Of a DNA stretch of 64,000 nucleotides, positions 21,593-55,720 are shown piece by piece. A program made the translations under genes and the position numbers. This DNA comes from an uncultured Candidatus Rokubacteria bacterium. GTDB taxonomy: Bacteria; Methylomirabilota; Methylomirabilia; Rokubacteriales; DASRDR01. The stretch's first letter is position 1. Every line of letters begins with the position of its first letter. The notes under the pieces were generated by a model. It was not told the origin of the DNA. It was given only the letters and a program-made list of their open reading frames with translations, and did not search any database. The DNA lies in contig CAVPSB010000018.1 of assembly GCA_963708025.1 (NCBI GenBank), positions 320,001-384,000 of the forward strand. Direction: 5' to 3'.

Positions 21593-21629
21593 GCTCGCGC
21601 CCGATGCCGGCCCGGCGCCCATCCGCGCG

Positions 21630-31989: not shown

Positions 31990-32072
31990 GGGCGGGGCCG
32001 AGAAGCGAGCAGCGCCCAAAGGCCGAAGGCCGTCCGAAGGACGACGTGCTGCGAAGCTCATCGGCCCCGCCC
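31990..32072 (+). repeat. Long-hairpin element, short copy A
   Basis: gggcggggccga...tcggccccgccc terminal stem enclosing the GAA module; CTAG at 32074. Confidence 0.85.
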
Positions 32073-32137
32073 GCTAGATTCCTTGAGGGCCAGAAGTCGT
32101 GCTGAATGAGTCAAGTTTCAGCAACACCGGCTCTCGT

Positions 32138-32259
32138 GGCGTGGCCGAGACCCGAGCAGCCCTAGGACGCAGGGAGTCGCCGACCGGAAGCGTACCCCGG
32201 GTACGCTGAGGATCGGCGACGACCGAGGACGACGGGATGCGACGGGTATCGGCCACGCC
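32138..32259 (+). repeat. Long-hairpin element, copy B
   Basis: Nested stems ggcgtggccga/tcggccacgcc, gtcgccga/tcggcgac, agcgtac/gtacgct; CTAG at 32261. Confidence 0.9.
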
Positions 32260-32260
32260 G

Positions 32261-33301
32261 CTAGACTTTGACGAGCCGCCGCAGCCACCCGTACGACATC
32301 ACGTGGTCGGAGAGGAACGCGCTCAGGTAGTCGGTCGGGACGCCCATCACCTGGCGCCGCCAGATCCGATCGCAGCTATAGCACGGGAGCTCCTTGGGGA
32401 TGTCGCCGGTGGCCATCCGCTGGCGCAGCTCGACCAGCCGGTCGTCGTTCCAGATGGCGCGGAGGGGCTTGTCCTTGAGGTCGCCCATGCCCAGCTTGGA
32501 GAAGAAGTCCTGCGGGCAGGCGGTGACGGTGCCGTCCCAGTAGATCGTCGACGAGTACCAGAGGAACGTGCACGGCGTGAACCGGCGGCCGTCGGCGAGC
32601 AGGGCGTCTCGCGACAGATCCGGCATGAAGACGTCGCCCGCCCAGTTGTGCGGTGAGCGGAGAACGACCCGGTCGAGCGGGAGGCCCTTGAACTGGTCGA
32701 GGAAGCCACGCCGCAGGCGCTTCAGCTCGTCGCGGTCCGGCGCCCCGATCTCCATCACCTGGAGCACGGTGTAGGGCCGCTTGGAGCGGAGCTCGCGCTT
32801 GAGCTGGAGGAAGCGCTTGAGGTGGTCGAGGGCCCACTCGAATTTCGCCCCGACGCGGTTCTTCTCGTACATGTCCTTGTCGTAGCCGTCGAAGGAGCAG
32901 GACATGAAGTCGAGACCGGATTCGATGAGCGCGCGGGCCTTCTTCTCGTTGAGCAGCGTGATGTTGGTGTGGATTCGGGTGTAGAGCCCTTGCGCGCGGG
33001 CGTAGGCGACCATCTCGGGGAGCTTCGGGTGCATCGTCGGCTCCCCGCGGTGGAAGAGGTTCACGTCGTAGGCGTAGTCCGCGACCTCGTCGATGATCCG
33101 CTTGAAGAGGTCGATGTCCATGAAGCCGTGGTCTTCCTTGACGATGTCCTTGTTCGGACAGTAGCCGCAGCGAAGGTTGCAGCGGCTCGTGGACTCGATC
33201 CACAGGCGCACCGGGAGCTGCGGGACCCACCTGGCTCCCGTTTTGTACGCCCAGAAGATCTTGACCAGGCGGACGAGGTGCTTGAGCTGGCGTCCGTCCA
33301 T
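32261..33301 (-). CDS. Radical SAM protein with SPASM/twitch domain
   Basis: CNLRCGYC, LFHRGEP, PCTFLW...IYWDGTVTACPQD...CYSC; start 33301 or 33310. Confidence 0.92.
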   Translation of the reverse strand: MDGRQLKHLVRLVKIFWAYKTGARWVPQLPVRLWIESTSRCNLRCGYCPNKDIVKEDHGFMDIDLFKRIIDEVADYAYDVNLFHRGEPTMHPKLPEMVAYARAQGLYTRIHTNITLLNEKKARALIESGLDFMSCSFDGYDKDMYEKNRVGAKFEWALDHLKRFLQLKRELRSKRPYTVLQVMEIGAPDRDELKRLRRGFLDQFKGLPLDRVVLRSPHNWAGDVFMPDLSRDALLADGRRFTPCTFLWYSSTIYWDGTVTACPQDFFSKLGMGDLKDKPLRAIWNDDRLVELRQRMATGDIPKELPCYSCDRIWRRQVMGVPTDYLSAFLSDHVMSYGWLRRLVKV

Positions 33302-33308
33302 CCCGCGC

Positions 33309-33314
33309 ATTATA
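33309..33314 (-). promoter_or_regulatory. Perfect -10 box, probably a leaderless transcript
   Basis: TATAAT followed by 7 nt, then ATG at 33301 on the - strand. Confidence 0.55.
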
Positions 33315-33319
33315 ACCGG

Positions 33320-34190
33320 TTATCCGCGGAGATGTCCCTTGGCGGCGAGGTACGCCCGGAGCGCCTCGGCCCACGGCCGCAGCGGCGGGAGGCCCAGCGC
33401 CGGGAGCCGCGTGTTCCGGAGCACGGAGTTCGCCGGCCGCCGGGCGGGCGCCCCGTACGCCTCGCTGGTGGTCGGCTCGAGATCCGGCGCGAGCCCGGTC
33501 AGCTCGAAGATGCGGCGGGCGAACTCGAACCACGAGCAGGCGCCGCCGTTGGTGAGGTGGTAGACGCCGCCGGGAGGGTCGGCGGCCAGGAGCCGCCCGA
33601 CCGCCTCGGCGAGATCCGCGGTGAAGGTCGGCGCCAGCACCTGATCGTCCACGACGCGCAGGCGCTTGCCGCTCGCGAGCCAGGCGGAGCATCGTCTCCA
33701 CGAAGTTGCCGCCCTTGCCGCTCGAGCCGGCGACGCCGTAGAGGCCCGAGCTGCGGATCACCAGGTGTCGCGGGCTGGCCTGTTGCACGAGGAATTCCCC
33801 GGCCAGCTTGGAGGCGCCGTAGGCGCTGACGGGGGCCGGCGGCGCGTCCTCGGCGTACGGCCCCGGCCCGCTGCCGCCGAAGACGTAGTCGGTGCTGACG
33901 TGGACGAGGCGGGCCGCGTGGCGCGCGCACGAACGGGCCAGGTGATGGACGGCGACGGCGTTGACGCGGAAGGCCGGCCCGGGGTCGGCCTCGATGTCGT
34001 CCACCCGGTGGAACGCCGCGGTGTTGACGACGACGCCCGGGCGGATCTCGCCGACGACGCGCTCGACCGCCGCGGCGTCGGTGACGTCCAGCTCGTGTCG
34101 CGTGAGGGCGACGAGCCGCGGTCCGGCCAGGACGCGCGCCAGGTCGCTCCCGAGCTGGCCGTTCGCCCCGATGAGCACGACGCGCTCCAT
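33320..34190 (-). CDS. rfbD: dTDP-4-dehydrorhamnose reductase (frameshift near 33675)
   Basis: LIGANGQLG, NTAAFHRVD, VSTDYVFGG, YGASKLAGE, NFVETMLRL, DDQ..APT, ARRPANS. Confidence 0.9.
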
Positions 34191-34200
34191 GCCGCGACTA

Positions 34201-37131
34201 TCACCAGATCCGGCCGAGGGCTCGGCTCGCGGCGTCTCCGACCGCGCTGCAGCCCGGCTCCGAGGAAGCTTCGACCACCTCGATCGTGCCAAGCTCGACG
34301 CTCGGGCTCCACGCCGGCAGGATGCCGGCGATCCAGCGGCGGAGCCGCTGCCCGGAGGCCGGACGCCAGACGCCGAGCACTATGCGGTAGGTCCCCGGGG
34401 GCGTCTCCGGCGGCACGACGACCCGCCGATGCTCCACGACGGCCTGCGGCCCCGCGGTGAGCCCGCGAATCCGCTCCGGGAGCCCATGGTCGTCGGCGAA
34501 GCGCCCGCGCTCGCCCCCGACGCGCACGAAGTGGACGTAGGCGGCGAGGCCGCTGGCGGGCTCGCGGAGCCGCCAGTGGGTAGGCGAGGTCGAGCGGCCT
34601 CGCCCGGGTGGAGGCGGCGTGGCGCGACCTGGTAGCCGACCAGCTCGACCGCGCGGCCGAAGGTCGCGGCGACCGGACGGGCCGGGGTGCCGGGCGGCCT
34701 GCGCCTCGGCCCGGAGCCGCGTCGCCTCCGCGGCGTCGCCCGCCGGCGGCGGCGACCGCGGCCCGGGCCTCGGCCAGGTCGGCGTACACGAGCTCGGGGC
34801 CGAGCCCGACGGCCAGTCGCGCGTAGATGAGCCGGGCCTCCTCGACGAGCCCGAGCCGGGCGTAGCGCGCCGCCCGCTCGGCCGGACAGCCGGCCAGGAC
34901 GTTCAGGTCACCGGCCAGCCGGAGGAACTCACGCGTAGCCCTCGGGGTCGTCGGGCGCGTCGCGCATCGCCTCGCGGTACCGCGTGAGCGCCGGCCCCGA
35001 GCGCGCCGGCTGCTTCGAGCCGGCGCCCCGCGTCGATCGCCTCGCCGGCCGGCGCCGGCCCCGGCGGCCGGTCCGAGCACGAACAGCTCCGACACCGCCC
35101 AGTTCCCCGCCGGCGCCACCTCGGTCAGCCGGAGCCGGCGCGCCTCGACCGGGCGGAAAGCGGACGGTCATCGCCCGCGTCGGCACGGCGCGGAGCGCGC
35201 CGTTCGCGCCAGAAGGGCGTGAAGCCGCCGGTCTCGACCCGGGTCACGGTGCGGGCCGGTCCCGCGCCGTCGGCGGCGTCCACGACGAGCCCCTGGACGA
35301 CGTGCTCCGGCTGGTCCGTCAGGAGCGTCAGGCCCGCGACCGCGTGGGTCTGGCCGAGGTCGACCTCGACCCAGGCCGTGCCCGGCGGCCCGGGCGCGCT
35401 CGACCAGCCCGACTCGATCTGCGTCGTCGGTCAGCGTGGCCGTCTCCCCCGTCCCGCGCTGGTGCGCACCGTCCACCCCGCGCGCGGGAGGCCGACGACG
35501 GCCGGCGGCGGCGTGAAGTCCCAGAAGAGGGTGAAGCCGCCGACCTGGCTCGCGCTGGCTCCGGACCTGGAGCATCTTGAGCCAGTTCTCGAAGAGTCGC
35601 GACGCCGCCGCGGACCAGGTGGACGGGACGGGGCGACGTCGTCCACGGCCTTCGTGTAGGGCCGGCTGCTTGTCGTTGAACGGCTCGGCGATGATGATCC
35701 GCTCGCCGGAGTCGAAGGTCAGGCGCGGGGCGACCCAGTACTCGTAGGCGTAGGCCCGGCGGAGCCCGCGCGCCTCGCAGGAAGGCGAAGAGGGCCCGGT
35801 CCTGGGCGCGCTCGGCCCGGTAGGCGGCCCGGCTCGTCCGGCCACAGCACCGTGACGTCGCGGACCAGCGGGATGCCGACGGCGACGAGGTAGGCGGCGG
35901 CGCCGGCGACGGCCACGAGGCGACTGCGGCGCCAGGTGAGCTGGCAGGCGCGCGCCAGGATGAGCGCCAGCGGCGGGGCCAGCGGGACGAGGTAGCGCGG
36001 CACCGCCAGGAAGCGGCCGTACCACACCATGCCGACGGTGATCGCCGCGGCGGCCAGCACGAGCGCCTCCCCGGCAAGCGCGGGGTCGCGCCGGAGGCGC
36101 CGCCACCCCCACAGGACCCGTACGGCGAGCAGGCGGTGGCGGCCCCCGGCCACGACCGGGATGACGAGGAAGAACGGCCACGGGAGGTACGGGCGGCGTG
36201 TTGACGTAGTCCTGGACCCCGAGGATGACCGGCAGGTGGTTGAGGAGGAGGCTCCGGGCGGCCGTCGCGGCCGGACTCCGCGCCCTGGAAGCGGACGCCG
36301 ACGTCGAAGGTGGCCCAGCCGTGGGTCAGGTTGTAGATCCAGAACGGCAGGCTGCCGAGGAGGAAGGCGCCGAGCCCGAGCCAGGCGCCGCGCCGCGGGG
36401 GAGCCCGGGATCGACGAGCAGCAGGGCGAGGGCCGCGGGGACGAGCGCGTCCACGATCTGGAAGCCGAAGTAGAGGCCGAGGCCGCCGGCCAGCCCCATC
36501 GCGACGAGCGCCCGGGCCCGGGCGGCCTCGAGGCGCGAGGCCGACAGCGGTGCCGAGGGCGTCCGACCCCCAGGTGGGGGGGGTCCAGGGGGGGGACCGC
36601 CGGAGGGACCGGACGTCCGAGGGCCGCAGGCCCGAGGCGTCCGGGCGACTCGACACTTGGGACTCCCGCCCCTGATGACAGCCGGGCGAGCCAGAGCGCG
36701 GCGCCGAGGAGGACGATCTGACCGACCAGGAGGTGCTCGATGTAGTAGGCGCGGGCGCGCACGTAGTGGGCGACGACGTACGGCGAGACGACCGTCGCGA
36801 AGAGGATCGCCAGCAGGCCGGCGCCGCGGCCGAAGAGGAGCGCGCCCGTCCGGTAGAGGGCCAGGACGAGGCCGAGGGCGGCCAGGGCCGGGACCAGGCT
36901 GAGCGCGGTGCGCGAGATGCCGAAGAGGAAGAAGGTCACGGCGGCGCCGTACGACTCGGGGATGCCGGCGTGGTGCTGGCCCCAGAAGAAGATCGGGAAC
37001 TCGCCGCGGAGGATGTGGACGCCCATCAGCCCCGTGATGGCCTGGTCGGAGTCCAGCCGGGGCGCCGCCAGGTGGAGCCCGAGGAGCAGCGCGAAGACGG
37101 CGAGGAGGGCCCAGAGCCTCCAGTCCCGCAC
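34201..37131 (-). CDS. ArnT-like GT-C glycosyltransferase with large C-terminal region (discoidin-like, TPR-like and Ig-like parts), many frameshifts, internal repeat insertion
   Basis: DSDQAITGLMG, FPIFFWGQ, GSLPFWIYN, PRYLVP, YWVAPRLTF, WVEVDLG, PPGTYRIVLGVW. Confidence 0.7.
36564..36674 (+). repeat. G-run repeat with nested gggccGCAggccc module (36603-36645), inside a CDS
   Basis: Flanks match 46499-46550; core matches 6196-6239. Confidence 0.8.
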
Positions 37132-37146
37132 TGGCTAGCGGTTGAG

Positions 37147-37292
37147 GTGCCGGGCCGAGAACCGAGCAGCCCGCACAGGCCGAAGGCCGTCCAATGGACG
37201 CAGGGCGGCGCCCACCGCAGACGTACGCCCTGGTACGTCGAGGATGGGCGCCGCCCGAGGACGACGGGATGCGACGGTTATCGGCACGGCAC
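37147..37292 (+). repeat. Long-hairpin element, copy C
   Basis: gtgccgggccga/tcggcacggcac, aaccg/cggtt, gggcggcgccca/tgggcgccgccc, gacgtac/gtacgtc; CTAG at 37135 and 37292. Confidence 0.9.
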
Positions 37293-37993
37293 TAGCGACC
37301 GGTGAAGCGGAGGCGGAAGACGGAGCCCAGGTAGGTCCAGAAGTAGGCGAAGAAGCGCGTCTTGGACTCGCCGCCCTTCCGGAAGCGGTAGACGGTGGGG
37401 ATCTCCAGGACGCGGCCACCCCGCTGCACCACCTGGTAGAGGAGGCGGATCGCGTAGTCGCCGTAGCCGTAGAAGATCCGCCCGGCGTCGAGCCCGTCGA
37501 GCAGCGACCGCCGGAAGGCGAGGTAGCCGGACAGGTTGTCGTGGATGCGGAGCCCGAGGACGACCCGGATCAGGATGTTGAAGGCGTAGGAGGCCCAGTA
37601 GCGGAACGCCGAGGTGAGCATGCCGCCGCCCAGGACGTAGCGGGAGCCGATCACGACGTCGAACTCCTCGGCGCAGCGGAGCATGAGCGGCAGGAGCGCC
37701 GGGTCGTGGTTCCCGTCGGAGTCCATGACGACCACGAAGTCGCCCCGCGCCTCGACGATGCCCCGGTGGATGGCGGAGGCGAGCCCCCGCTCGCCGCGGC
37801 GGACGTGAACCCGCACCGCCGGCTCGGCCCGGAACGCCTCCTCGACGTGGGCGCCGGTGCCGTCGGGCGAGTCGTCGTCCACGACGAGGACCTCGAAGTC
37901 GAGCCGGGCCGCCCGGGCGATGGCGACGATCTCCGCCACCAGCTCGGCGATGCCGTCGCGCTCGTTGTAGGTCGGCAGGATCACCGAGACCAA
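37292..37993 (-). CDS. Polyprenol-phosphate glycosyltransferase (DPM1-like GT2)
   Basis: SVILPTYNE, VVDDDSPDGT, VMDSDGNHDP, GSRYV, RKGGESK. Confidence 0.9.
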   Translation of the reverse strand: MVSVILPTYNERDGIAELVAEIVAIARAARLDFEVLVVDDDSPDGTGAHVEEAFRAEPAVRVHVRRGERGLASAIHRGIVEARGDFVVVMDSDGNHDPALLPLMLRCAEEFDVVIGSRYVLGGGMLTSAFRYWASYAFNILIRVVLGLRIHDNLSGYLAFRRSLLDGLDAGRIFYGYGDYAIRLLYQVVQRGGRVLEIPTVYRFRKGGESKTRFFAYFWTYLGSVFRLRFTGR

Positions 37994-37998
37994 CGCGT

Positions 37999-39093
37999 CT
38001 ACCTCTTGGCCAGCTCGTGGAGCGCGCGGCACACGGTCGCGATCTCCTCCGTCGTCAGGCCGGTGCCCGAGGGCAGGTTGATCCCGGTCCGGCTGAGCCG
38101 CGTGGCGACGGGGAACGGGGCGTCCGTCCGGTAGGGCGGCTGCTCGTGCAGCGGCACGAAGAACGGCCGCGAGTCCACCCCGCGCGCCCGGAGCCCTTCG
38201 CGGACCGCGTCGCGATCGCAGCCGAAGCCCGACTCGATCAGCACCGAGTACATCCAGTACACGCTCTCGGCCCACGGCTCGGCCGGGGGCCGGACCAGGC
38301 CCGGGAGGTCCGCGAGCCCGGCCTCGTAGGCGGAGGCGATCACCTTCCGGCGCTGGAGGATGCTCTCGGCCTGCTCGAGCTGGGCGCAGCCGATCGCCGC
38401 CTGGATGTTCGTCATCCGGTAGTTGAAGCCCACCTCGGGGTGGTAGTACCGGCGCTGGGGATCCATCGCGTGGTCCCGCAGGAACCGCGCGCGCTCGGCC
38501 AGGGCGCCATCGTTGGTCACCACCATCCCGCCCTCCCCGGTGGTGATGATCTTGTTTCCGTAGAACGAGAACGCCCCGATCTCGCCGAGCGCGCCGACCC
38601 GGCGGCCGTGGTACCGGGCGCCGTGGGCCTCCGCCGCGTCCTCGACCACCGCGAGGCCGTGGCGCCGGCCGAGATCCAGGAGCGGATCGAGATCCACCGG
38701 GTGGCCGTAGACGTGGACCGGGATGATGGCCCGGGTCCGCGAGGTGACCTTCCGGGCGGTGTCGGCCGGGTCCAGGCCCCAGGTCACGGGGTGGGCGTCG
38801 ACGAGGACGGGGGTGGCTCCGGTGTAGCGGACGACGTTGGCGGTGGCGATGAAGGTGAGATCGGGCACCAGCACCTCGTCCCCCGGGCCGATCCCGAGCG
38901 TGACCAGCGCCAGGTGGAGCGCGGTCGTCCCGTTCGAGGTGGCCACCGCGTGCCGGGCCTCGCAGAAGCGGGCGAAGTCACGCTCGAATCGCGGGACGTA
39001 CTCGCCGAGCGAGGAGATCCAGCCCGTGTTGACGCAGTCGAGCACGTAGCGGCGCACGTTCTCGGACAGCCAGGGGGCGAAGACCGGGATCAC
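37999..39093 (-). CDS. DegT/DnrJ/EryC1/StrS aminotransferase, perosamine-synthase-like
   Basis: GWISSLGEYV, SNGTTALHLAL, EDAAEAHGA, FSFYGNKIITTGEGG, GFNYRMTNIQAAIG. Confidence 0.92.
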   Translation of the reverse strand: MIPVFAPWLSENVRRYVLDCVNTGWISSLGEYVPRFERDFARFCEARHAVATSNGTTALHLALVTLGIGPGDEVLVPDLTFIATANVVRYTGATPVLVDAHPVTWGLDPADTARKVTSRTRAIIPVHVYGHPVDLDPLLDLGRRHGLAVVEDAAEAHGARYHGRRVGALGEIGAFSFYGNKIITTGEGGMVVTNDGALAERARFLRDHAMDPQRRYYHPEVGFNYRMTNIQAAIGCAQLEQAESILQRRKVIASAYEAGLADLPGLVRPPAEPWAESVYWMYSVLIESGFGCDRDAVREGLRARGVDSRPFFVPLHEQPPYRTDAPFPVATRLSRTGINLPSGTGLTTEEIATVCRALHELAKR

Positions 39094-40328
39094 CGCGCCT
39101 CCTCGCGCACTTCGCGCACCATGTCGCACACGTAGGCGATCTCGGCATCGGTCAGGGTCGCCCCCGACGGCAGGTACAGGCCCCGCCGGCACAGCTCCTC
39201 GGACACCGGGTAGCGCTGGCCCTGGAAGGCCGCGTAGTAGATCGGCTGGAGATGGATCGGGATGAAGAAGGTCCGGGTCTCGATGCCGCGCCGGGCCAGC
39301 CGGCGGCGCAGCTCGTCGCGCGACATGCCGAACTCGTCCTCGACCAGGAGCCCGTACATCCAGTAGACGTTGCGCACCCAGGGGCGCTCGATCGGCAGGG
39401 TCAGCCCCGGGATCCGGGAGAGCATCTTCGTGTAGCGCCGGGCGTTCGTGCGGCGGATCTCGACCAGCTCGTCGAGCCGCTCGGTCTGGGCGAGCCCGAT
39501 GGCCGCCTGCAGGTTGGTCATCCGGTAGTTGAAGCCGAGGTACTTGTGCCAGAAGTGGCGCTCGTCCGAGAAGGCGTGGTCCCGGAGTCGCCGGGCCACC
39601 CGCGCCAGCTCGGCGTCGTTGGTGGTGACCATGCCGCCCTCGCCGGTCGTGATGATCTTGTTGGCGTAGAACGAGAACGACGCGGCCCGTCCGAGGCTCC
39701 CGATCGGGCGATCCCGGTAGCGGGCCCCGTGGGCCTCGGCGGCGTCCTCCACCACCCACAGCCCCCGCCGCTCGGCCAGCTCCAGCAGGGGATCCATCTC
39801 GACCGGGTGGCCGTAGGTGTGGATGAGGAGGATGCCCCGGGTCTTCGGCGTGATCGTCCGCTCGATCTGCGCCACGTCGAAGTTCCAGGTCTCCCGCTCG
39901 GAGTCGACCAGGACCGGCGACGCCCCCGTGTAGCGGACGGCGTTGGCGGTGGCGATCATGGTGAAGGTGGGGATGATGACCTCGTCCCCCGGCCCGACGC
40001 CGAGCGTGGCCAGGGCCAGGTGGAGCGAGGTCGTCCCGTTCGAGGTGGCGATGCCGTAGCGGCAGCCCATGGCGCCGGCGAAGGCCTCCTCGAACTCCCG
40101 GATGAAGCGCCCGGCCGAGGAGATCCAGTTGGACTGGATGCACTGGGTCACGTAGCGGAGCTCGTTCCCGTCGAGCCGGGGGTCGGAGACCGGGATGATC
40201 CGGCGCGTCGGGGATTCCTCGACCACCGGGATCCGCTGGATGCGGACCTCGAGGGCCGGCTCCGGCCCGGGGATGATGTCGCCCAGCTCGGCCAGCACCG
40301 AGTCTGGCAGTCGGGTTTCCTCGATCAT
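39090..40328 (-). CDS. DegT-family aminotransferase, perosamine-synthase-like paralog
   Basis: NWISSAG, EDAAEAHGA, FSFYANKIITTGEGG, GFNYRMTNLQAAIG. Confidence 0.92.
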   Translation of the reverse strand: MIEETRLPDSVLAELGDIIPGPEPALEVRIQRIPVVEESPTRRIIPVSDPRLDGNELRYVTQCIQSNWISSAGRFIREFEEAFAGAMGCRYGIATSNGTTSLHLALATLGVGPGDEVIIPTFTMIATANAVRYTGASPVLVDSERETWNFDVAQIERTITPKTRGILLIHTYGHPVEMDPLLELAERRGLWVVEDAAEAHGARYRDRPIGSLGRAASFSFYANKIITTGEGGMVTTNDAELARVARRLRDHAFSDERHFWHKYLGFNYRMTNLQAAIGLAQTERLDELVEIRRTNARRYTKMLSRIPGLTLPIERPWVRNVYWMYGLLVEDEFGMSRDELRRRLARRGIETRTFFIPIHLQPIYYAAFQGQRYPVSEELCRRGLYLPSGATLTDAEIAYVCDMVREVREEAR

Positions 40329-41071
40329 GAGCGGTCCCTCCCGGTGACGGTGTCCCAGCGGAGCTGCAGGATCGTGCCCACGTAGCGCAGGCCCAGGGCC
40401 GTGAAGCGGCCGAGATCCGGGCTGGTCTTGGTCTCGCCGGCCCGCCGCTCGACGTTCACGTACGGGACCTCGACCACCCGGAGCCCGGCCCGGCAGGCGC
40501 GGTAGAGGAAGTCGATGCAGTAGTCCCCGTAGACGTAGTGCGTGCGGAGCGGCACCCGCTCCAGCGCCGCCCGGCGCGCCGCGACGAAGCCCGAGGTCCA
40601 GTCACGCACGGGCCCGCCCAGGCAGAGGGTGGCGACCAGGTTGATGGCCTGCGAGGCCCGGATGCGGAGCCGCGAGTCCCGCGCGTCCGAGCCGCCCGGC
40701 GCGTACCGCGAGGCGACCGCGACGTCGGCGGCCCGCGAGGCGTCCGCCAGCCGGGTGATGACCTCGGCCGGCATCGAGCCGTCGGCGTCCAGCCACACGA
40801 CCACCTCACCCTTGGTCTCGGCGACGCCCTCGGCGAGCGCGGAGGGAAGCCCGCGCCGTCCGATCCGGCGCCGGACGCGGACCCGCCCGTCGCCGCGGAA
40901 GGCGTCCTCGACCGCTTGCCAGGTGCGATCGGGGGAGTCGTCGTCGACCACGAGCACCTCGGCGTCCGGCACCGCGTCGAGGATCTCCCGCACGACGCCG
41001 ACGATGACGAGGCCCTCGTTGTAGGTCGGCAGGATGACGGAGGTCTGTCCGACACCTGGGTTGTTCATCAC
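40325..41071 (-). CDS. Polyprenol-phosphate glycosyltransferase (DPM1-like GT2)
   Basis: SVILPTYNE, VVDDDSPDRT, WLDADGS, RDWTSGF, RRAGETK. Confidence 0.88.
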   Translation of the reverse strand: MMNNPGVGQTSVILPTYNEGLVIVGVVREILDAVPDAEVLVVDDDSPDRTWQAVEDAFRGDGRVRVRRRIGRRGLPSALAEGVAETKGEVVVWLDADGSMPAEVITRLADASRAADVAVASRYAPGGSDARDSRLRIRASQAINLVATLCLGGPVRDWTSGFVAARRAALERVPLRTHYVYGDYCIDFLYRACRAGLRVVEVPYVNVERRAGETKTSPDLGRFTALGLRYVGTILQLRWDTVTGRDRS

Positions 41072-46487: not shown

Positions 46488-46498
46488 GGACTGTCCAA

Positions 46499-46550: not shown

Positions 46551-46575
46551 CTCGGCCACGCGGGCGATCTCGGGC

Positions 46576-47950: not shown

Positions 47951-49215
47951 GGCGGCACCCCCGCCCTCCACCCGGCGTCCGCCAGGTGTGCGCCAGCCGC
48001 GCCACGCCGGTGTCCTTGACCCGCGACCGCACCGCGAAGGCGTAGAGGCGGCAGTGGTAGTCGTACGGGTGGCCGTCCCGGGCGTGGGCGGCGACGTCCA
48101 GCAGGTACTCGCCCTCGATCAGGTCCAGCCGCTGGATCTCCATGGCGAGGTCGCCCTCCCCCGCCAGCTTGCCGAGATGGAGCCCGTCGATCGCGGTGTT
48201 GGTGCCGTAGCAGCAGACGCCGTCCTTCCGGAACACGCCGATCCCGAACACCGGGTCCTCGATCGGTCGCGGTGGCCCGCCAGTCGAGGTGGACCGTGCA
48301 GGCCTCGCCGGCGTCGTAGAGATAGCGCTCGGCGCCGGCGGCGTCGAGCAGGCGGACCCGGGTGATCTCGACCTCGCGGCTGCCCCAGCGCTGCGCGGTG
48401 CCGGCGGCGGCCTGCGCCTCGGCCTCCCGGTGGTCGGCGCCCAGCGCCTGGGCCTCTTCGCTGGCCACGTGGTTCAGGTACCCGTCGATGACCTGGCGTG
48501 TCCCGCCGTGGGCCATGAGTCGCCCCTGGTGCAGCCACACCGCCTCGTCGCACAGCCGCTCGACGCTGCCCAGGTCGTGGGTGACGAGGACGATGGTCTT
48601 GCCCCGCGCCTTGAACTCCTGGATCTTGCCCACGCACTTGTGCTGGAAGGCCTCGTCGCCGACCGCCAGGACCTCGTCGATCAGGAGGATGTCGGGATCC
48701 ACGGTGACGGCGATGGCGAAGCCGAGCCGCATGTACATGCCCGACGAGTAGGTCTTGACGGGGTTGTCGATGAAGGCGTCGAGCCCGGCGAAGGTCACGA
48801 TCTCGTCGAAGCGCTCCCGGATCTCGGTCCGGGAGAGCCCGAGCAGGATCCCGTTGACGTAGATGTTCTCCCGCCCGGTGAACTCCGGGTGGAACCCCGC
48901 CCCCAGCTCGATCAGGGCCGAGACCCGGCCCGCGACCGCGATGGAGCCGCTGGTGGGCTTCAGGATCCCGCCGACCAGCTTGAGCAGGGTCGACTTGCCG
49001 GAGCCGTTCGAGCCGATGATGCCGACCATCCGCCCCCGCGCCAGCTCGAGGCTCACGTCCCGGACGGCCCACAGCTCCTCGCCGCCGAACAGGCGGCCAC
49101 GGCCGCCCCGGACGAACAGGTCCTTCACGGTGAAGACCTCCCGGCCCCGGTGGAGCCGGAAGCGCTTGGAGACACCGCGGACGGCAACGGCGATGTCGGG
49201 AGACGGCGCGGCCAC
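47947..49215 (-). CDS. wzt: Polysaccharide ABC exporter ATPase with C-terminal Wzt-C carbohydrate-binding domain (frameshift near 48270)
   Basis: GSNGSGKST, LIELGAGFHPE, YSSGMYMRLGF, IDEVLAVGD, RWGSREVEI, YGTNT. Confidence 0.92.
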   Translation of the reverse strand: MAAPSPDIAVAVRGVSKRFRLHRGREVFTVKDLFVRGGRGRLFGGEELWAVRDVSLELARGRMVGIIGSNGSGKSTLLKLVGGILKPTSGSIAVAGRVSALIELGAGFHPEFTGRENIYVNGILLGLSRTEIRERFDEIVTFAGLDAFIDNPVKTYSSGMYMRLGFAIAVTVDPDILLIDEVLAVGDEAFQHKCVGKIQEFKARGKTIVLVTHDLGSVERLCDEAVWLHQGRLMAHGGTRQVIDGYLNHVASEEAQALGADHREAEAQAAAGTAQRWGSREVEITRVRLLDAAGAERYLYDAGEACTVHLDWRATATDRGPGVRDRRVPEGRRLLLRHQHRDRRAPSRQAGGGGRPRHGDPAAGPDRGRVPAGRRRPRPGRPPVRLPLPPLRLRGAVAGQGHRRGAAGAHLADAGWRAGVPP

Positions 49216-49222
49216 GGGTCGC

Positions 49223-50029
49223 CTACACCTCCTCGGCCAGGCCGTCGCGGAGCCGCTCGAAGATCTGGTAGCCGCCCCAGAACGTGACGACGGCCATGAT
49301 CGTCACCATGCCGAGGTGGATCCAGTGCGGCTCCCGGCCGAAGAAGATCACGTTCTGGTATCCCTGGACGAGCCCGGCCACCGGGTTCAGGAAGTAGAGC
49401 GGGCGGAGGGGGATGGTCAGCGCCTCGCCGAGCCGCAGGTGGACCGGGACCGTCGAGACGGGGTAGAGGATCGGCGAGAGGAAGAACAGCAGCACGAGGC
49501 CGTTGGCCAGGATCTGCTCGATGTCGCGGAGGTGGACGTTGAGCGCGGCGAGCGGCAAGGCCAGGCCGACCGTGAGCAGGAGCTGGATCGCGAGCAGCAG
49601 CGGCAGGAAGGCCAGCATGGCGGTGGGGCGGATGCCGAAGACGAGGAGAAAGACGAGGAGGAGAGGCAGCGTCAGCACCAGGTTCACCAGGTTCGATAGC
49701 ACCGAGACCAGCGGCAGGATCTCGGCCGGGAACAGGATCCGCTTGACCAGGGACCCGGAGCCGACGATCACACCGGTGGCATGCCCGAGGGAGGAGGAGA
49801 ACCAGAGCCAGGGCAGGAGGCCCGTGATCAGGAAGACGGCGTAGTTCTCCATGGGGACGCGGAGGTACACCGCGAAGACCAGGACGTAGACGAGCATCAG
49901 CATCAAGGGGTTGAGGAACGACCAGAGGAAGCCCAGGACGGAGCCCCGGTAGCGCGCGCGCAGCTCCCGGAGGACCAGGGTGACGATGAGCGTGCGGAAG
50001 CGGTACAGCTCGGTGAGTCGTGCTGCCAT
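49223..50029 (-). CDS. wzm: Polysaccharide ABC exporter permease
   Basis: RELRARYRGSVLGFLWSFLNP, GLLPWLWF, RDIEQI, SPILYP, LNP. Confidence 0.92.
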   Translation of the reverse strand: MAARLTELYRFRTLIVTLVLRELRARYRGSVLGFLWSFLNPLMLMLVYVLVFAVYLRVPMENYAVFLITGLLPWLWFSSSLGHATGVIVGSGSLVKRILFPAEILPLVSVLSNLVNLVLTLPLLLVFLLVFGIRPTAMLAFLPLLLAIQLLLTVGLALPLAALNVHLRDIEQILANGLVLLFFLSPILYPVSTVPVHLRLGEALTIPLRPLYFLNPVAGLVQGYQNVIFFGREPHWIHLGMVTIMAVVTFWGGYQIFERLRDGLAEEV

Positions 50030-50075
50030 GACCTTCAATCTTAACGCGGAGACGGGCGGTTGCCCGCCTGGGAAG

Positions 50076-51020
50076 TTAGACCCGGGATCGCCAATCCGTC
50101 AGCACGTCGGCGAGGCTCTGCTCGAGGGGAATTTCGGGCTTCCAGCCGGTCAGGGCGCGGAGGCGACCGGCGTCCCCGAGCAACAGCGGCAGATCGATGG
50201 GTCGAACGCGCTCCGGCGCCACCCGCACCTCGATGGGACGCCCGGCCAGCGCCAGGAAGGCGTCCACCACCTCGCGGATGGCGACCGCCCGCCCGGATGC
50301 CGCGTTGTAGACCTCGCCGGGCGTGGCGTGCTCGAGGCAGAGCCAGTAGGCGCGGACCATGTCCCGCACGTCGGTGAAGTCGCGGCGGGTCGTCAAGGTT
50401 CCGACCTCGAGCACGGGGGGGGCGAGCCCCTTGTCGATCGCCGCCACCTGGCGGCCGATGTCACTGCAGACGAAGCCCGGTCCCTGCCGGGGGCCGATGT
50501 GATTGAAGGCGCGCACGATCGCGATGGGCAGCCTCTCGGCCCGGACGTAGTAGGAGGCGTAGGCCTCCTGGCAGGCTTTCGAGAGCGCGTAGGGCGATAG
50601 CGGCCTCACCGGCTGGGCCTCGGTGATCGGCTGGGCGCCCTCGGGGACGGCGCCGTACAGCTCCGCCGACGAGACGAGCAGGCAGGGGGCGGGCATCGCC
50701 CGGAGCCCCTCGAAGAGCTGAAAGGTTCCTTCCAGGTTCTGGCGGAGGACGTCGGCCCGCTGGGCCCAGGACGTTCCCACCACGCTGGCTCCGGCCAGGT
50801 GGAAGACCCGGTCGGGTCGGATCTCGGCCAGCACGGCTGCCGCCTCGCCCGGCTCGGTCAGGTCGCAGGGAATGGCTTGGACGGACGTCTGGATCGCCGC
50901 CAGGTTGGTGACCGGCGCGCCGGGGAGGGTGGTCCCCACCACCTCGGCGCCTTCGTCGAGGGCCAGCCTGGCCAGGTGACTGCCGGCGAAACCCGCGATC
51001 CCGGTAATGAACACCTTCAC
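50076..51020 (-). CDS. GDP-mannose 4,6-dehydratase / GDP-4-keto-6-deoxy-mannose reductase family SDR
   Basis: ITGIAGFAGSHL, VSSAELYG, PYALSK, RAFNHIGP, RDFTDVRD. Confidence 0.88.
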   Translation of the reverse strand: MKVFITGIAGFAGSHLARLALDEGAEVVGTTLPGAPVTNLAAIQTSVQAIPCDLTEPGEAAAVLAEIRPDRVFHLAGASVVGTSWAQRADVLRQNLEGTFQLFEGLRAMPAPCLLVSSAELYGAVPEGAQPITEAQPVRPLSPYALSKACQEAYASYYVRAERLPIAIVRAFNHIGPRQGPGFVCSDIGRQVAAIDKGLAPPVLEVGTLTTRRDFTDVRDMVRAYWLCLEHATPGEVYNAASGRAVAIREVVDAFLALAGRPIEVRVAPERVRPIDLPLLLGDAGRLRALTGWKPEIPLEQSLADVLTDWRSRV

Positions 51021-51048
51021 CGGAACGCTCCTTCGACTAGAGGTCTAT

Positions 51049-51193
51049 GGGCCGGGCCGAGAACCGAGCAGCCCTAGGACGCAGGGAGTCCCCGACCGCA
51101 GGCGTACTCCTAGTACGCCGAGGATCGGGGACGACCCCAAAGGCCGAAGGCCGTCCGAACGACGACGCGATGCGACGCTCATCGGCCCCGCCC
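51049..51193 (+). repeat. Long-hairpin element, copy D (contains GAA module 51137-51155)
   Basis: gtccccga/tcggggac and ggcgtact/agtacgcc stems; CTAG at 51037. Confidence 0.9.
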
Positions 51194-51215
51194 GAGGACG
51201 AACGGATGCGAAGGC

Positions 51216-52169
51216 CTACACACGCTCACGCCAGTAGTCGAGCAGGTCCTTCATGGTCACCTCGAACGGGATCGTCGGCTGCCAGCCGGTGGCCCGCTGG
51301 AAGCGCGTGCAGTCCCCCAGCAGGACCTCGACGTCCGAGGGCCGCAGTCGGTCCGGGTCCTCGCGGACCTCGACCTGGGCGGGGGTCAGGCTCAGCAAGA
51401 TGTCGAGCACGCTCCGGACCGTGTAAGCGCGACCCGCACAGATATTGTAAACCTCGCCCGGCTCTCCGTGCTCCAGGGCCAGCCAGTAGGCGCGCACCAT
51501 GTCGCGGACGTCCGTGAAGTCCCGCGTGGCTCCCAGGTTTCCGACCCAGACCACCGGCTCCCGGCGCCCCTTCTCGATCGCCGCGATCTGGCGGGCGAAG
51601 TTCGAGGTCACGAAGACCTCGCCGCGCCGGGGACCGGTATGGTTGAACCCGCGCGTCCGCACGGCGTGCAGCCGGTGGCTCATCCAGTACTGGTAGGCCA
51701 GGTAGTCCTGCGCGACCTTCGACACGGCGTAGGGTGACAGCGGCCGGAGCGGGTTCTCCTCCCGGATCGGCACCTCGTCCTTGTGGACGAGGCCGTATTC
51801 CTCGCTGGACCCGGCGATCTGCACCCGCGTCGGGAGGCCCAGCTCGCGGATGGCCTCGAAGAGGTTGAGCTGACAGGTCAGGTTGCCGGTGATGGTCTCG
51901 CTGGGGGAGGACCAGGACGTCAGGACGTAGCTCTGCGCGGCCAGGTGGAAGATCCGATCCGGGTGGACCGCGCTCAGCATCCGGCGGACGCCGCCGGCGT
52001 CGCGGAGATCGCACTCGACGAGCCTGATCCCGTCCCGCAGGTGCTCGATGTTATCCATCCGGCTCCGCCAGCGGTGGGTGCCAACGACCTCGACGTCGCC
52101 GCGAGCCACCAGGTAGTCGGCCAGGTGGCTGCCGACGAAGCCCGTGACGCCCGTGATCAGCACTCGCAT
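51216..52169 (-). CDS. GDP-mannose 4,6-dehydratase / reductase family SDR
   Basis: ITGVTGFVGSHL, HLAAQSYV, GSSEEYG, PYAVSK, FNHTGPRRG, GNL..RDFTDVRD. Confidence 0.88.
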   Translation of the reverse strand: MRVLITGVTGFVGSHLADYLVARGDVEVVGTHRWRSRMDNIEHLRDGIRLVECDLRDAGGVRRMLSAVHPDRIFHLAAQSYVLTSWSSPSETITGNLTCQLNLFEAIRELGLPTRVQIAGSSEEYGLVHKDEVPIREENPLRPLSPYAVSKVAQDYLAYQYWMSHRLHAVRTRGFNHTGPRRGEVFVTSNFARQIAAIEKGRREPVVWVGNLGATRDFTDVRDMVRAYWLALEHGEPGEVYNICAGRAYTVRSVLDILLSLTPAQVEVREDPDRLRPSDVEVLLGDCTRFQRATGWQPTIPFEVTMKDLLDYWRERV

Positions 52170-53288
52170 TCCGGATCTCCTCGAAAGAACTCCTGGATCT
52201 GTTCGATCACCGCGCCGGTCTCCGCGTCCCGGAGCTCGGGGAAGCAGGGCAGGGAGAGCACCTCCTGCGATGCGGCCCAGGCGACCGGGAAGCGCGTCGG
52301 ATCCCAGCCGAGCGCCCGGAAGACCGGCTGCCCGGGAATCGGCTGCGGATAGTGGCACGCGGTGCCGATGCCGGCGCCCGGCCAGGTGCTTGGCCAGGGC
52401 GTCCCGGCGGGGCGTACGGATCGTGTACTGGTGGAAGACGTGCCGGGTGCCGGCCGGCTCCGCCGGCAGCCCGAGCGGGAGGCCGCGCAGGGCGGCGGTG
52501 TAGCGAGCCGCGATGCCGCGGCGGGCCTCGGTCCAGGCCCCGGCGTGGCGCAGCTTGACCCGGAGGATGGCGGCCTGCAGCTCGTCGAGCCGGCTGTTCC
52601 AGCCGAGCTCGACGTGATCGTACTTCTGCACCTGGCCGTGATTGCGGTGCCGCCGCATCGCCGCCGCCAGCGCGCCGTCGCCGGTCGTGACGAGACCGGC
52701 ATCGCCGTACGCGCCGAGCGGCTTGGTCGGGTAGAAGCTGAAGGCCGCCGCCGTCCCGAAGCTCCCGACCGCGCGACCCTCGAGGGTGGCGCCGAAGGCC
52801 TGGGCCGCGTCCTCGAGCACCACGAGGCCCCGCGCGTCGGCCAGCCGCTGGAGCGCCGGCATCGGCGCCGGCAGCCCGTAGAGGTGGACCGCCACGATGG
52901 CCCGGGTGCGGGGGGTGATCGCCGGCGCCGCCTGCTCGGGCCCGAGGGTCAGGGTCACCGGATCGACGTCGGCGAAGACCGGCCGGGCGCCGACCTGGAG
53001 GACCGCGGTGGCCGAGGCCACGAACGAGAACGCCGGGGTCACGACCTCGTCGCCCGGACCGATGCCCAGGGCCGAGAGGCCCAGCAGGAGCGCGTCCGAT
53101 CCCGAGCCGACCGCGATCGCGTGGTCGACGCCGAGCGCGGCCGCGCACTCGGCTTCGAACGCCTCGCCCTCGGAAGAGAGAATGAACCGGCCGCTCCGCA
53201 GAACGCGGCGGAGGGCCGCCTCGATCTCCGGCTCGATCGTGGCGTACTGCCGGGCGAGGTCGAACTGGGGAATGGACGTGACCGTCAC
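52157..53288 (-). CDS. DegT/DnrJ/EryC1/StrS aminotransferase (frameshift near 52380)
   Basis: IPQFDLARQY, EDAAQAFGA, FSFYPTKPLGAYGDAG, GWNSRLDELQAAIL, HVFHQYTI, VLSLP. Confidence 0.9.
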
Positions 53289-55468
53289 TGCGTCGTCGCC
53301 CCGAACGCCTGGCCGAAGCCGAGCTGTCCGAGCTCTAGCAGGTTGACGGTGACGTGGAACTCGTCCTCGTTGATCCGGTCGATGAAGGCGGCGGTGATCC
53401 CCCAGCACTGCTCGCGGAAGTTCACCTCGAGCCGGTTCTCGACCACCGTCCCGCTCACGTAGTCGTAGTTGCTGGAGAACCGGACCGCCCAGCGGGGCGA
53501 GAGCCGGGCCGCCAGCTCGCCCTGGATGAACTGGAGCTCGCCCCCCACGCCGTGTCGCGTCCCGAGGGTGGCGCGGAACGCCTCCGTCACGTAGGAGGCG
53601 TCGATCGTGGCGGAGCGGACGTCCCGCTCGTACGGATCGAAGACGGCCGTCCCCCGGAACCGGAGGCCATAGACCGGCTCCAGGATCAGGTCGCCGACGA
53701 GGTCCGACAGCCGGTTGACCTTGAACGTCGTGGCGGTGCCGGGTGTGATGGGACCGGGCGGTGCCGGCAGGTTGATCCCCGAGAACGGCGACAGCAGGAA
53801 CTGATCCTCCAGGCTGTAGGTCTGGCTGAACGTGAGCCGGGCCAGCTCCCACACCCGCCCGCTGGGGAAGGCCTCGGAGGCGACGCTCCGGGCCTTGATG
53901 CGGTTGGTGAGGGAGTAGGTGAAGCTGTTCACGGGGCGAATCAGATCGATGCTGTCGTACTGCGGCAGGTCGTCCTGGTCGGTGCCGGTGCTGTAGAGGT
54001 AGCTGATCCGCGGCTCGATGGCGTGCTGGATCTTCTCGATGCCGAGGACGCCGCCCAGCTCGAACGTCCGGTAGGCGCGGGCCTCCAGGTCCACACCGGC
54101 CTCGAACAGGGAGCGGGCCGTGAACTCCTTCTCGGTGTCCTCGACCAGGAAGCCGCGGTCAACCGTGGCCCCGACCACCCGGGTGTCGTAGAGGGTCTCG
54201 CGCACGCCGATCCGGGGGGTCATCGTGAAGTATCCCCCGGGGGAGAACGGATAGGAGACGCTGGGGTGGAGGTCGAAGCGCTGGCCATTCGATCCCACGT
54301 CCCGGACGAAGTTGTTGTACGAGGTCTCCAGGTCGAACAGGATGTCGGTGCCGGCGATCCGCTGGGAGAACCCGGTCAGGCGCAGCTCGGGGAGGCGCTG
54401 CAGCTCGATCGGCTGGGTGGTGGTCAGGTCCTGATAGAAGAAGAGCCGGCCGAACAGGTTCCACTTGTCCCACCGCTGGGTCAGGGAGATGTTCGACTCG
54501 AGCCGCTGGCGACTGCGCTCGTCCAGCGTGTCGCCGAAGTCCTGGAAGAAGGTGATGTCGCTGACCCGGGCCACGTCCACCTTCAGGGTGAGCCCGGGGG
54601 TGATCAGCTCCTCGTGCCGCAGCCCGAACACTCCGCGCAGCTTGTCCTGCTCGGTGTCGTAGATCCCGAAGCCTTCCAGCTCCCCGCGGGAGGTCTCCTT
54701 CCGGATGTAGCGGTACAACGCCCCCATCGCGAGCCCGCGCTTCTCGAAGACCGTGGGGACCAGTGTGAGGTCCTGGCTGTCCGAGAGCACCAAGAAGATC
54801 GGCTGGCGATAGGTGAAGCCCTTGTCGTTGCTGGAGCCGAAGCTCGGGGTCAGGAGCCCCGACTGGCGCTCTCTCCGGAGGGTGGCGGCGAAGATCGGGA
54901 TGAACGGGATCAGCGGCACGCGGCCGACCCAGAAGGAGGCGTTGGTGCCCCAGATCCAGTCGTCGAGGTAGGCCGTGGCTTGACCCCAGCGCACGTGCCA
55001 GGCGGGCGACTCGTCCTCGCAGGTGGTGAACCAGCCCCCGGTGAGGCGGTAGGCTTTCTCGCCGAAGCGCTCCATCTTGTCGCCCCGGAAGAAGAAGTGG
55101 GGCTCGGCGGCGGCCTGCCCCTTGTACACGACTCCGGTGCCGGTGCGGAAGTTGTACTCCAGGCGCTCGCCGACGAGCCGGTCCCGGCCGTCGAAGAAGA
55201 CCACCCGCCCGACCGCCACCGCTTCCCCGGTCTCGGTGTTGACCTCGACGCGGTCGGCCTCCAGGCGCACCTCGCCCTGCTCGATCTCCACGCGGCCCTC
55301 GGCGATGAGGAGGCGCTCCCGCTCGAGGTTCTCGATGCGATCCGCGAACACCGCGACGGGCGCCTCGGGGGTGCCGAAGGTCACATCTTTGCGCTCCTGG
55401 GCCAGGACCACGGCCGGGAAGAGCGCGAGCCACGCGACGATCAGCCCGATCAGGCGCGTCCCGGGCAC
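53285..55468 (-). CDS. lptD: LPS-assembly outer-membrane protein LptD
   Basis: Signal peptide, OstA-like N-domain, FTTCE, RQSGLLTPSFG, QRLPEL, HAIEP, NSFTYSLTNR, QCWG. Confidence 0.88.
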   Translation of the reverse strand: MPGTRLIGLIVAWLALFPAVVLAQERKDVTFGTPEAPVAVFADRIENLERERLLIAEGRVEIEQGEVRLEADRVEVNTETGEAVAVGRVVFFDGRDRLVGERLEYNFRTGTGVVYKGQAAAEPHFFFRGDKMERFGEKAYRLTGGWFTTCEDESPAWHVRWGQATAYLDDWIWGTNASFWVGRVPLIPFIPIFAATLRRERQSGLLTPSFGSSNDKGFTYRQPIFLVLSDSQDLTLVPTVFEKRGLAMGALYRYIRKETSRGELEGFGIYDTEQDKLRGVFGLRHEELITPGLTLKVDVARVSDITFFQDFGDTLDERSRQRLESNISLTQRWDKWNLFGRLFFYQDLTTTQPIELQRLPELRLTGFSQRIAGTDILFDLETSYNNFVRDVGSNGQRFDLHPSVSYPFSPGGYFTMTPRIGVRETLYDTRVVGATVDRGFLVEDTEKEFTARSLFEAGVDLEARAYRTFELGGVLGIEKIQHAIEPRISYLYSTGTDQDDLPQYDSIDLIRPVNSFTYSLTNRIKARSVASEAFPSGRVWELARLTFSQTYSLEDQFLLSPFSGINLPAPPGPITPGTATTFKVNRLSDLVGDLILEPVYGLRFRGTAVFDPYERDVRSATIDASYVTEAFRATLGTRHGVGGELQFIQGELAARLSPRWAVRFSSNYDYVSGTVVENRLEVNFREQCWGITAAFIDRINEDEFHVTVNLLELGQLGFGQAFGATTQ

Positions 55469-55575
55469 CAACCCCCCTGAGTAGTCGTGTCGGTTCGGCA
55501 ATCGTGGAGCCGTAGCGCGCGAAGATCGCGGGCATCGTACCAGATGCCACGGCGAAGGCGCAACGCCTTGCGAGG

Positions 55576-55720
55576 GGGCGGGGCCGATGAGCTTCGCATC
55601 GCGTCGTCGTTCGGACGGCCTTCGGCCTTTGGGGTCGTCGCCGATCCTCGGCGTACTCGGAGTACGCCTGCGGTCGGCGACTCCCTGCGTCCTAGCGCTG
55701 CTCGCTCCTCGGCCCCGCCC
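55576..55720 (-). repeat. Long-hairpin element, copy E (contains GAA module 55614-55632)
   Basis: Reverse complement has gggcggggccga...gtcgccga..ggcgtact ccg agtacgcc..tcggcgac...tcggccccgccc. Confidence 0.9.

Follow-up and report, generated by a model that had tools for sequence, protein, structure and literature searches.

The window analyzed here is a 64,000-nt stretch of DNA from an uncultured Candidatus Rokubacteria bacterium (assembly GCA_963708025.1, contig CAVPSB010000018.1, positions 320,001 to 384,000), and it contains five copies of a nested-hairpin element that lie beside protein-coding genes. A preliminary description, made from the sequence alone, had placed these copies at window positions 31990, 32138, 37147, 51049, and 55576 and quoted the stems of their fold; the copies lie where it put them, and the quoted stems are legible in the sequence. 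Strands are given here as the strand on which a TAG tag precedes the hairpin. The preliminary description read the opposite strand, referred to below as the complementary strand, and for four of the five copies that orientation is antisense to the flanking genes.

Copy 1 (31990..32075, minus strand) is a short form, co-directional with its flanking genes, in which the two termini enclose a GAA-bearing module (the G module) as the sole inner module. It belongs to a 70-nt length class with 6 copies genome-wide. Copy 2 (32138..32260, minus strand) has the basic form, with an outer stem P1, stems P2 and P3, a core hairpin P4-P5, and conserved internal loops. The interval between these two copies (32076..32137, minus strand) is the tail of copy 2, which also bridges to copy 1 and ends in CTAG. 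Such tails, termed P', form a loosely conserved module of about 45-60 nt that is found 3' of the hairpin in many copies and recurrently includes ...CTTGACTCATCTGCCATGACTTTGGCGCTTCAAGGAnnCTAG. The base of copy 2 is 1 nt from the TAG stop codon (32261..32263, minus strand) of a gene with the Pfam domains Radical_SAM and SPASM, whose open reading frame (ORF) spans 32261-33310 on the minus strand. Copy 3 (37147..37292, minus strand) consists of the termini, a G module, and then the core hairpin, and the final base of its stem doubles as the G of the TAG of the upstream gene, a glycosyltransferase-2 gene at 37292-37984. Copy 4 (51049..51193, minus strand) has the termini, the core hairpin, and then the G module; 3' of it lie a 21-nt partial repeat of the right arm (51194-51214) and then the stop codon of a DegT/dehydratase gene (51216-51218). 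Copy 5 (55576..55720, plus strand) has the architecture of copy 4 in reverse orientation. It runs antisense to the minus-strand genes on either side, lacks a TAG at the tag end, and counts as one of the 51 copies in the genome that are not adjacent to a stop codon. The G modules within the five copies (32015..32035, 37172-37192, 51136-51156, and 55613-55633, no strand assigned) are 21 nt long and are made of two C-GAA-G mini-hairpins. As had been noted at the outset, this module is plugged in at differing positions, preceding the core hairpin in copy 3 and following it in copies 4 and 5.

Each copy was folded as a single strand and compared with 200 dinucleotide shuffles. Folding energies range from -58.9 to -96 kcal/mol and z scores from -5.13 to -8.95, and for no copy was any of the 200 shuffles as stable (copy 1, -58.9 kcal/mol, z -6.87; copy 2, -85.2 kcal/mol, z -8.95; copy 3, -96 kcal/mol, z -8.80; copy 4, z -5.13; copy 5, z -7.67 on the complementary strand of the preliminary description and -5.98 on the other). 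The preliminary observation holds for all five copies, each being far more stable than its shuffles. A repeat finder recovers the family independently: complementarity is 94% along the 145 nt of the arms 51049-51193 and 55576-55720, and 89% between 32138-32224 and 55633-55719. Copies 4 and 5 are inverted relative to each other, with 4382 nt between them. The 4.4 kb between them hold an LptD gene and a DegT-type aminotransferase that is fused or adjacent to a sugar dehydratase, and the layout of 51049-55720 resembles a composite transposon, with no sign of movement as a unit.

Modular build, covariation, and constraint

The genome (8.17 Mb, 71% GC, 49 contigs, completeness 99.67%) contains 224 complete copies of the element, which together make up 38.5 kb or 0.47% of the sequence; this count is a lower bound, obtained by strict pairing of the two terminal motifs. 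A blastn search with the five window copies returns 440 merged loci, fragments and chance matches included. Several copies are 97-100% identical to copy 5, so the family has undergone recent multiplication. The suggestion of a nonautonomous mobile element in the preliminary description thus accords with at least 224 complete copies, some of them nearly identical, and the family is probably mobile. Contamination of the assembly is listed as 8.18%, so a small share of the copy counts could derive from another organism.

Complete copies fall into length classes of 111, 132, and 153 nt and of 165, 186, 207, and 228 nt, that is, in steps of 21 nt and 54 nt. These correspond to a construction from two termini (stems P1-P3), the core hairpin P4-P5, the 21-nt G module, and a 54-nt hairpin (the H module). 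The G module substitutes for a 7-nt xAGGxCG at three fixed sites. Its 15-mer AGGCCGAAGGCCGTC is found in the window 7 times, with 0.07 expected, and with at most 1 mismatch the module occurs 574 times in the genome. Since 365 of these 574 occurrences lie outside the 224 elements, where they sit at the tips of at least 2 other hairpin repeat families, the G module is common to several repeat families. Elsewhere in the window it is found at 6266-6280 (+), 15312-15326 (-), and 57483-57497 (+), at the tips of unrelated hairpin repeats; the unrelated hosts are of a GGGGGG/CCCCCC-rich type and a GAGCCGCGGCC type. One copy on the minus strand of contig C24, about 74,000 from the strand start, carries a different small inverted-repeat element (ends CCCCAATCGGCGA...) in its apical loop, a nested insertion by a second family that resembles MITEs (transposable elements of the miniature inverted-repeat type).

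The preliminary description had also claimed clear compensatory base changes, and this claim stands for the family at large more than for the window. Among the five window copies, most of the changes fall between two linked subfamilies, one with GAGCG/CGCTC and CGC/GCG and the other with ACCCG/CGGGT and CCC/GGG, so that few independent compensatory events are represented. Covariation is seen in an alignment of 36 distinct copies of the basic form, taken from this window and from other genomes (alignment A1, with copy 2 as its first row). In A1, 85.7% of cells pair versus 69.0% with the partners shuffled, a level that none of 500 shuffles reaches; both sides change in 28 of 38 pairs, and partners slid by 1-3 columns pair at 30.5-41.8%. 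An alignment of copies from Thermoleophilia (A2, 43 rows), which was fitted to the covariance model and is thus biased toward structure, gives 84.4% paired versus 67.5%, with changes on both sides in 26 of 37 pairs. Within this genome the distal outer stem exists in 57 distinct 6-nt variants, and at least 6 of its 8 positions are complementary in 170 of the 224 copies, versus 35% for mismatched pairs. The internal loops, which had been described as conserved, are near-invariant across both phyla and read TCGCAT/CTGCT and GTCGTCCTCGG/CCCTGCGTCCT on the gene strand.

Selection can also be followed at single sites. In genus g51 a site is shared by three species, each of which has one copy there. 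Between these species the identity of the element is 93-94%, that of the upstream gene 76% (56% at third codon positions), and that of the downstream 200 nt 48-50%. The element, a copy that does not multiply, is better conserved than its flanks and is under purifying selection. A second orthologous low-copy case is a diverged variant found at the same site in three species of genus g50, where it overlaps the start codon of a gene beginning MLIDTHAH, which we take to resemble TatD. With stems that covary in two alignments and a single-copy orthologue far better conserved than its surroundings, the element is structured and selected, as first proposed, and some copies at least are under host-level constraint.

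Position at stop codons and spread across two phyla

Gene context was taken from 7122 calls made with a crude, purpose-written codon-usage finder. By these calls the tag end of the element faces the stop of a gene in 196 of 224 copies (in the orientation of the preliminary description, its right end faces an opposite-strand gene), and both neighbors lie on the strand opposite to the one first read in 164 of 224. These neighbor orientations indicate that the element usually points along its operon and that the strand first read was the antisense one. The gaps are co-directional in 183 of the 224 cases, convergent in 32, and divergent in 9, with 19 copies lying antisense between co-directional genes.

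A stop codon is found within 20 nt of 173 of the 224 copies, and the commonest gap between the stop and the conserved GGCCGA is 7 nt, which places the stop 0-2 nt from the stem base. The stops adjoining these 173 copies are TAG in 127 cases, TGA in 42, and TAA in 4; genome-wide the counts are 2000, 4741, and 357, respectively, so that TAG accounts for 2000 of 7098 stops (28%). Of the 173 copies beside a stop, 67 have CTAG as their 5' context and 44 have GTAG, making 111 of 173 with [C/G]TAG. Of the 51 copies away from called gene ends, 16 are likewise preceded by TAG, versus a background of 2.9% (12-nt window). The G of the TAG is often paired in the stem, and 34 of the 224 copies have no adjoining stop triplet.

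The neighboring genes are diverse and include radical SAM/SPASM proteins, glycosyltransferases, sugar aminotransferase/dehydratase, LptD, and ABC transporters. At the radical-SAM site the protein upstream retains its native length, its orthologues in metagenome contigs terminating at the same residue, and the site is empty in at least 5 related contigs with the same downstream gene, which then begins 9-57 nt away; there are two elements at the site in this genome and one in one other contig. The insertion is therefore located exactly after the native stop. One subfamily has a tail of about 44 nt that ends in a Shine-Dalgarno-like GAGGG, with the start codon of the next gene 7-10 nt further on. 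A coding role was rejected, even though the modules, at 21 and 54 nt, have lengths divisible by three: reading on from the upstream stop, the frame is open no more than the others, and the frame begun at the internal ATG has variable ends, which lie at +53 in about 27 of 146 copies and, in 29, in the first 20 nt past the hairpin. Elsewhere in the window, the interval 15535-24151 contains direct repeats in tandem, three to four in number and each about 2.7-2.9 kb long, which share 68-88% identity (repeat families D1-D8) and are probably a series of paralogous genes.

By blastn the family is present in 30 of 41 relatives. The preliminary description had proposed a covariance model and a scan of related genomes; a model built on the 36 basic-form copies (R1) has matches in 108 of 151 genomes of the phylum (106 of 149 without two unpublished ones) and in 43 of 55 genera. 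A scan of public genomes with a 28-letter core pattern gave at least 101 loci, and the labels among the matches listed are Candidatus Rokubacteria, Methylomirabilota, Thermoleophilia, Gaiellaceae, Gaiellales, Solirubrobacterales, and Actinomycetota. The model matches every one of the 43 loci tested, 41 of them at an E-value of 5e-9 or better, where the E-values of this model are rough; by record label, 41 loci belong to Actinomycetota, one to a delta proteobacterium, and one to Candidatus Siliceabacter. The Thermoleophilia version shares the inner loops and helices, and its outer palindrome is longer, extending from TAG to CTA(G). The link to stop codons, the spread over two phyla, and the sharing of the G module with other repeat families are features that lay beyond the sight of the preliminary description.

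Probable mobile DNA and its alternatives

The family is dispersed in hundreds of copies with a nested fold of four to five helices and compensatory pairing. We read it as an uncatalogued family of compound, modular palindromic repeats, nearest in kind to the TAG- or GTAG-tagged repetitive extragenic palindromes (REPs), REPINs, and bacterial interspersed mosaic elements (BIMEs), and as nonautonomous mobile DNA, and we would give this reading a probability of roughly 55%. The family would then spread with the help of a trans-acting factor that reads the folded form, with the conserved loops as putative recognition sites, and that places copies beside TAG. In a genome of 71% GC, TAG would be nearly confined to stop codons, and insertions into coding sequence would be lost, which together could produce the observed position and orientation at stop codons. 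Their location within operons makes co-transcription probable, and so stable a hairpin probably affects mRNA ends or translation termination.

Several observations weigh against this reading. The profile PF01797 (Y1_Tnp) has no match in this genome, with control genomes positive, and Y1 was likewise not found in five element-rich relatives; it is present in 14 of the 41 relatives, mostly element-poor ones, and in one of three Thermoleophilia genomes. PF07282 (TnpB) also has no match in this genome, so that the co-occurring transposase or nuclease for which the preliminary description had proposed to look did not appear with the Y1 (RAYT) and TnpB profiles. The factor is not a canonical Y1 (RAYT) transposase. 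No copy was seen with its termini set far apart around a gene, none of 33 unpaired left termini leads to a gene-bearing element (the profile searches covered the Y1 and TnpB families), and no gene flanked by inverted copies is transposase-like. Exact flanking direct repeats of at least 9 nt occur in 20 of 224 copies versus 3.4% in mismatched controls. Repeats that reach upstream of the stop are rare, and a regular target-site duplication is not supported; about ten copies duplicate a 9-15 nt stop/start overlap. Contigs of four runs stack up over the elements, breaking at the element borders, and among the contig joints listed none skips exactly one element, nor was a presence/absence allele found there. 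The units, at 80 to >230 nt, are far from the simple stem-loops of 20-40 nt that constitute REPs. The single-copy orthologue of g51 argues for a host function beyond selfish spread alone, and the gene calls, coming from so crude a finder, are weak.

Two Thermoleophilia contigs were considered in the search for a parent. In one, a gene pair between inverted copies was rejected, as it consists of two ordinary-looking ORFs without ends like those of an insertion sequence (IS). In the other (L142:135-1319, on contig C65 of genome G162), a copy is split by a 1.0-kb IS that encodes a 309-aa protein, appears IS481-like by its sequence, and is unrelated to the element. This is the only pair of termini about 1.2 kb apart in that genome. 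The IS is inserted at the CCTAGG of a conserved loop, and the loop of the element thus serves as an IS target.

The strand question is a further difficulty, since the tag and gene context favor the gene-sense strand, yet the complementary strand folds better with RNA parameters. It does so in all 36 rows of A1 (by a mean of 11.8 kcal/mol) and in 41 of 43 rows of A2; in this genome it folds better in 129 copies and the sense strand in 93. Mismatches in the alignment lean the same way, with sense A.C, which is G.U on the opposite strand, at 15 pair positions versus sense G.U at 5, a count in which 47 of 68 cells come from two columns. The complementary strand bears the purine-rich internal loops and the C-GAA-G triloops, and the loops of the sense strand are pyrimidine-rich. 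In 144 of 218 copies the complementary strand coincides with the C-rich strand; gene orientation alone would lead one to expect about 57%, so replication bias is not decisive.

The alternative that survives best, although we hold it only tentatively, is that the element is a host cis-acting RNA in operon mRNAs, intercistronic or in the 3' untranslated region, whose multiplication is secondary. As the hairpin base abuts the stop, a terminating ribosome would have to open the outer stem, and possible roles include protection of the mRNA upstream from 3' exonucleases, marking of a processing site, tuning of termination, and keeping the stop and next start close. The strong purifying selection on the g51 orthologue and the further orthologous low-copy cases in g50 suit such a role, as do the stops usually 0-2 nt from the stem base, the location of 183 of 224 copies between co-directional genes, the subfamily tail with GAGGG 7-10 nt before the next start, and the few copies with duplicated stop/start overlaps in which both genes stay intact. 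In E. coli, REPs stabilize the upstream mRNA, and Liang, Rudd and Deutscher reportedly found in 2015 that REPs about 15 nt or less from a stop codon lower translation. However, a plain exonuclease block needs no loop sequences conserved across two phyla, and an RNA acting in the operon transcript would use the strand that folds worse and whose loops are pyrimidine-rich. The 34 copies without an adjoining stop triplet and the 19 that are antisense between co-directional genes do not fit it either, and no intrinsic (U-tract) terminator is present in the one region scanned, 31800-32400.

A MITE with inverted repeats of the IS630/Tc1 type, inserting at the TA of CTAG and duplicating the TA, is an unlikely explanation. 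An element starting with G would restore a TAG stop on landing in TAG or TAA, and the enrichment of TAG would follow naturally. The frequent CTAG and GTAG contexts (67 and 44 of 173) and the well-preserved tails, which often end in CTAG, agree with this, but in this genome the palindrome lacks a TA at its 3' edge, and when the tail is counted the ends are not inverted repeats. Moreover, 42 of the 173 copies abut TGA, which has no TA, there is no general duplication signal, and no parent IS with matching ends was found, IS630-family transposases not having been searched for. Among 13 Thermoleophilia copies inspected by eye, about 7-8 have TA...TA flanks, for example TA[GTGGTC...GACCAC]TA. The TA-duplicating model is a partial fit to the Thermoleophilia copies and a poor fit to this genome.

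We consider it more improbable still that the element is an independently transcribed small RNA on the complementary strand, antisense to the flanking genes, with an upstream P module as its promoter. The better folding of that strand (36/36, 41/43, and 129/222 cases), its purine-rich loops and C-GAA-G triloops, and the G.U-compatible mismatches at 15 versus 5 positions are what it has to offer, together with a TTGAAG or TTGACG in the P module about 17 nt before a conserved ATGAGT. Against these, the scan of 31800-32400 found no sigma-70-like promoter or -10 hexamer and no terminator, the P module is absent from many copies and from the Thermoleophilia version, and an RNA gene would not usually exist in hundreds of copies with variable modules; nor does the model explain why the opposite strand is tied to stop codons at the nucleotide level. 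That the copies are recombination sites like the attC sites of integrons, at the 3' ends of gene cassettes, is hardly credible despite their position right after stops, the keeping of structure over stem sequence, an overlapping length range, and better folding of one strand, since they are scattered and not arrayed among ordinary operon genes (ABC transporters, glycosyltransferases, LptD) and no RYYYAAC/GTTRRRY core sites were seen by eye in the termini, integron integrase not having been searched for.

Returning to the family as nonautonomous mobile DNA, a bolder version of this reading, which we regard as rather doubtful, would invoke an undescribed, non-Y1, structure-specific machinery of Methylomirabilota (Rokubacteria) and Thermoleophilia. 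Such machinery would copy hairpins to TAG-adjacent sites and plug the 21-nt GAA mini-hairpin into xAGGxCG loops, those of other families included, and in low-copy lineages the copies would have been co-opted by the host. Its putative recognition sites would be the two AGGACG loops and the AGCAG/AUGCGA loop on the strand opposite to the genes. If this were true, the machinery would be a new single-strand mobile system, DNA- or RNA-templated. Rokubacteria and Gaiellales/Thermoleophilia are abundant, mostly uncultured soil bacteria, and Gaiella has cultured representatives in which the element could be tested at the bench if they carry it. The covariance model marks hundreds of sites per genome and can thereby serve to annotate intergenic regions, correct gene ends, and explain breaks in metagenome contigs.

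Comparison with known systems

The family matches nothing named, as the preliminary description had supposed. In Rfam 15 the whole window has no match at gathering thresholds, and at E-values up to 10 only chance-level matches to mir-1228 (17.7 bits versus a threshold of 88) and Chloroflexi-1 (13.1 versus 80) are returned. Matches for five loci of the Thermoleophilia type (four labelled Actinomycetota and one Candidatus Siliceabacter) are likewise only at chance level. Literature searches on repeats and noncoding RNA in Rokubacteria, Methylomirabilota, Thermoleophilia, Gaiella, and Solirubrobacter yielded no description of the family. A passage of one such article reports that 8-17% of Rokubacteria genomes is predicted to be non-coding (Becraft et al. 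2017, PMC5712423), and its text, supplements aside, contains no words for repeat, palindrome, or intergenic. We therefore compared the family by its habits with four kinds of known elements.

The attC sites of integrons are structured single-strand sites directly after stop codons that keep structure over sequence and in which one strand is preferred. The present copies share the stop-adjacent position, the conservation of structure over sequence, and the preferred strand, and differ from attC in that they are not arrayed, show no core-site consensus by eye, and have housekeeping neighbors. Mycobacterial interspersed repetitive units (MIRUs) are located in the intercistronic gaps of operons, oriented along the genes, where they touch the stop and start codons of their neighbors and bear short reading frames that keep translation coupled. 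The present family resembles them in its intercistronic location, its direction along the genes, and its contact with stop and start codons, whereas it forms a large hairpin and no frame is preserved through it.

Bacterial MITEs such as Correia/NEMIS and those derived from IS630 are nonautonomous and intergenic, have terminal inverted repeats, are co-transcribed, and undergo nested insertions. The nonautonomous size of the present family, its inverted termini that fold into long hairpins, its intergenic spread, its probable co-transcription with adjacent genes, and its nested insertions are all MITE-like. It departs from MITEs in having no consistent target-site duplication, no parent IS that was found, and, in this genome, an asymmetric tail, and also in that its internal loops are conserved at phylum-level distance while the stems covary.

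The closest likeness is to REPs, REPINs, and BIMEs, and above all to the GTAG REPs. In the relevant passages of Di Nocera et al. 2013 (PMC3733652), GTAG REPs are high-copy extragenic palindromes located mostly between unidirectional and convergent ORFs, downstream of coding regions, and their termini often supply a TAG stop codon. In the present family the placement is of the same kind, and many copies have at one end an xTAG, which often serves as the TAG stop as well. It shares with BIMEs a mosaic or modular build and with REPs a hairpin that is maintained by paired changes. Unlike GTAG REPs, it has CTAG as its tag more often than GTAG, and 42 of 173 copies abut TGA; in contrast to the REP/RAYT pairing, no RAYT/Y1 was found in this genome or in five other element-rich relatives. 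The family is further set apart from REPs by its four to five nested helices, conserved internal loops, and plug-in modules, and by its occurrence in two phyla with the loop sequences conserved. We conclude that the family shares the habits of GTAG REPs and fails two of their defining features, the unit size and the cognate Y1 transposase. The placement at stop codons, the conservation of loops across phyla with covarying stems, the shared plug-in modules, and the lack of a RAYT are unusual for a REP or a MITE and point to a specific protein partner.

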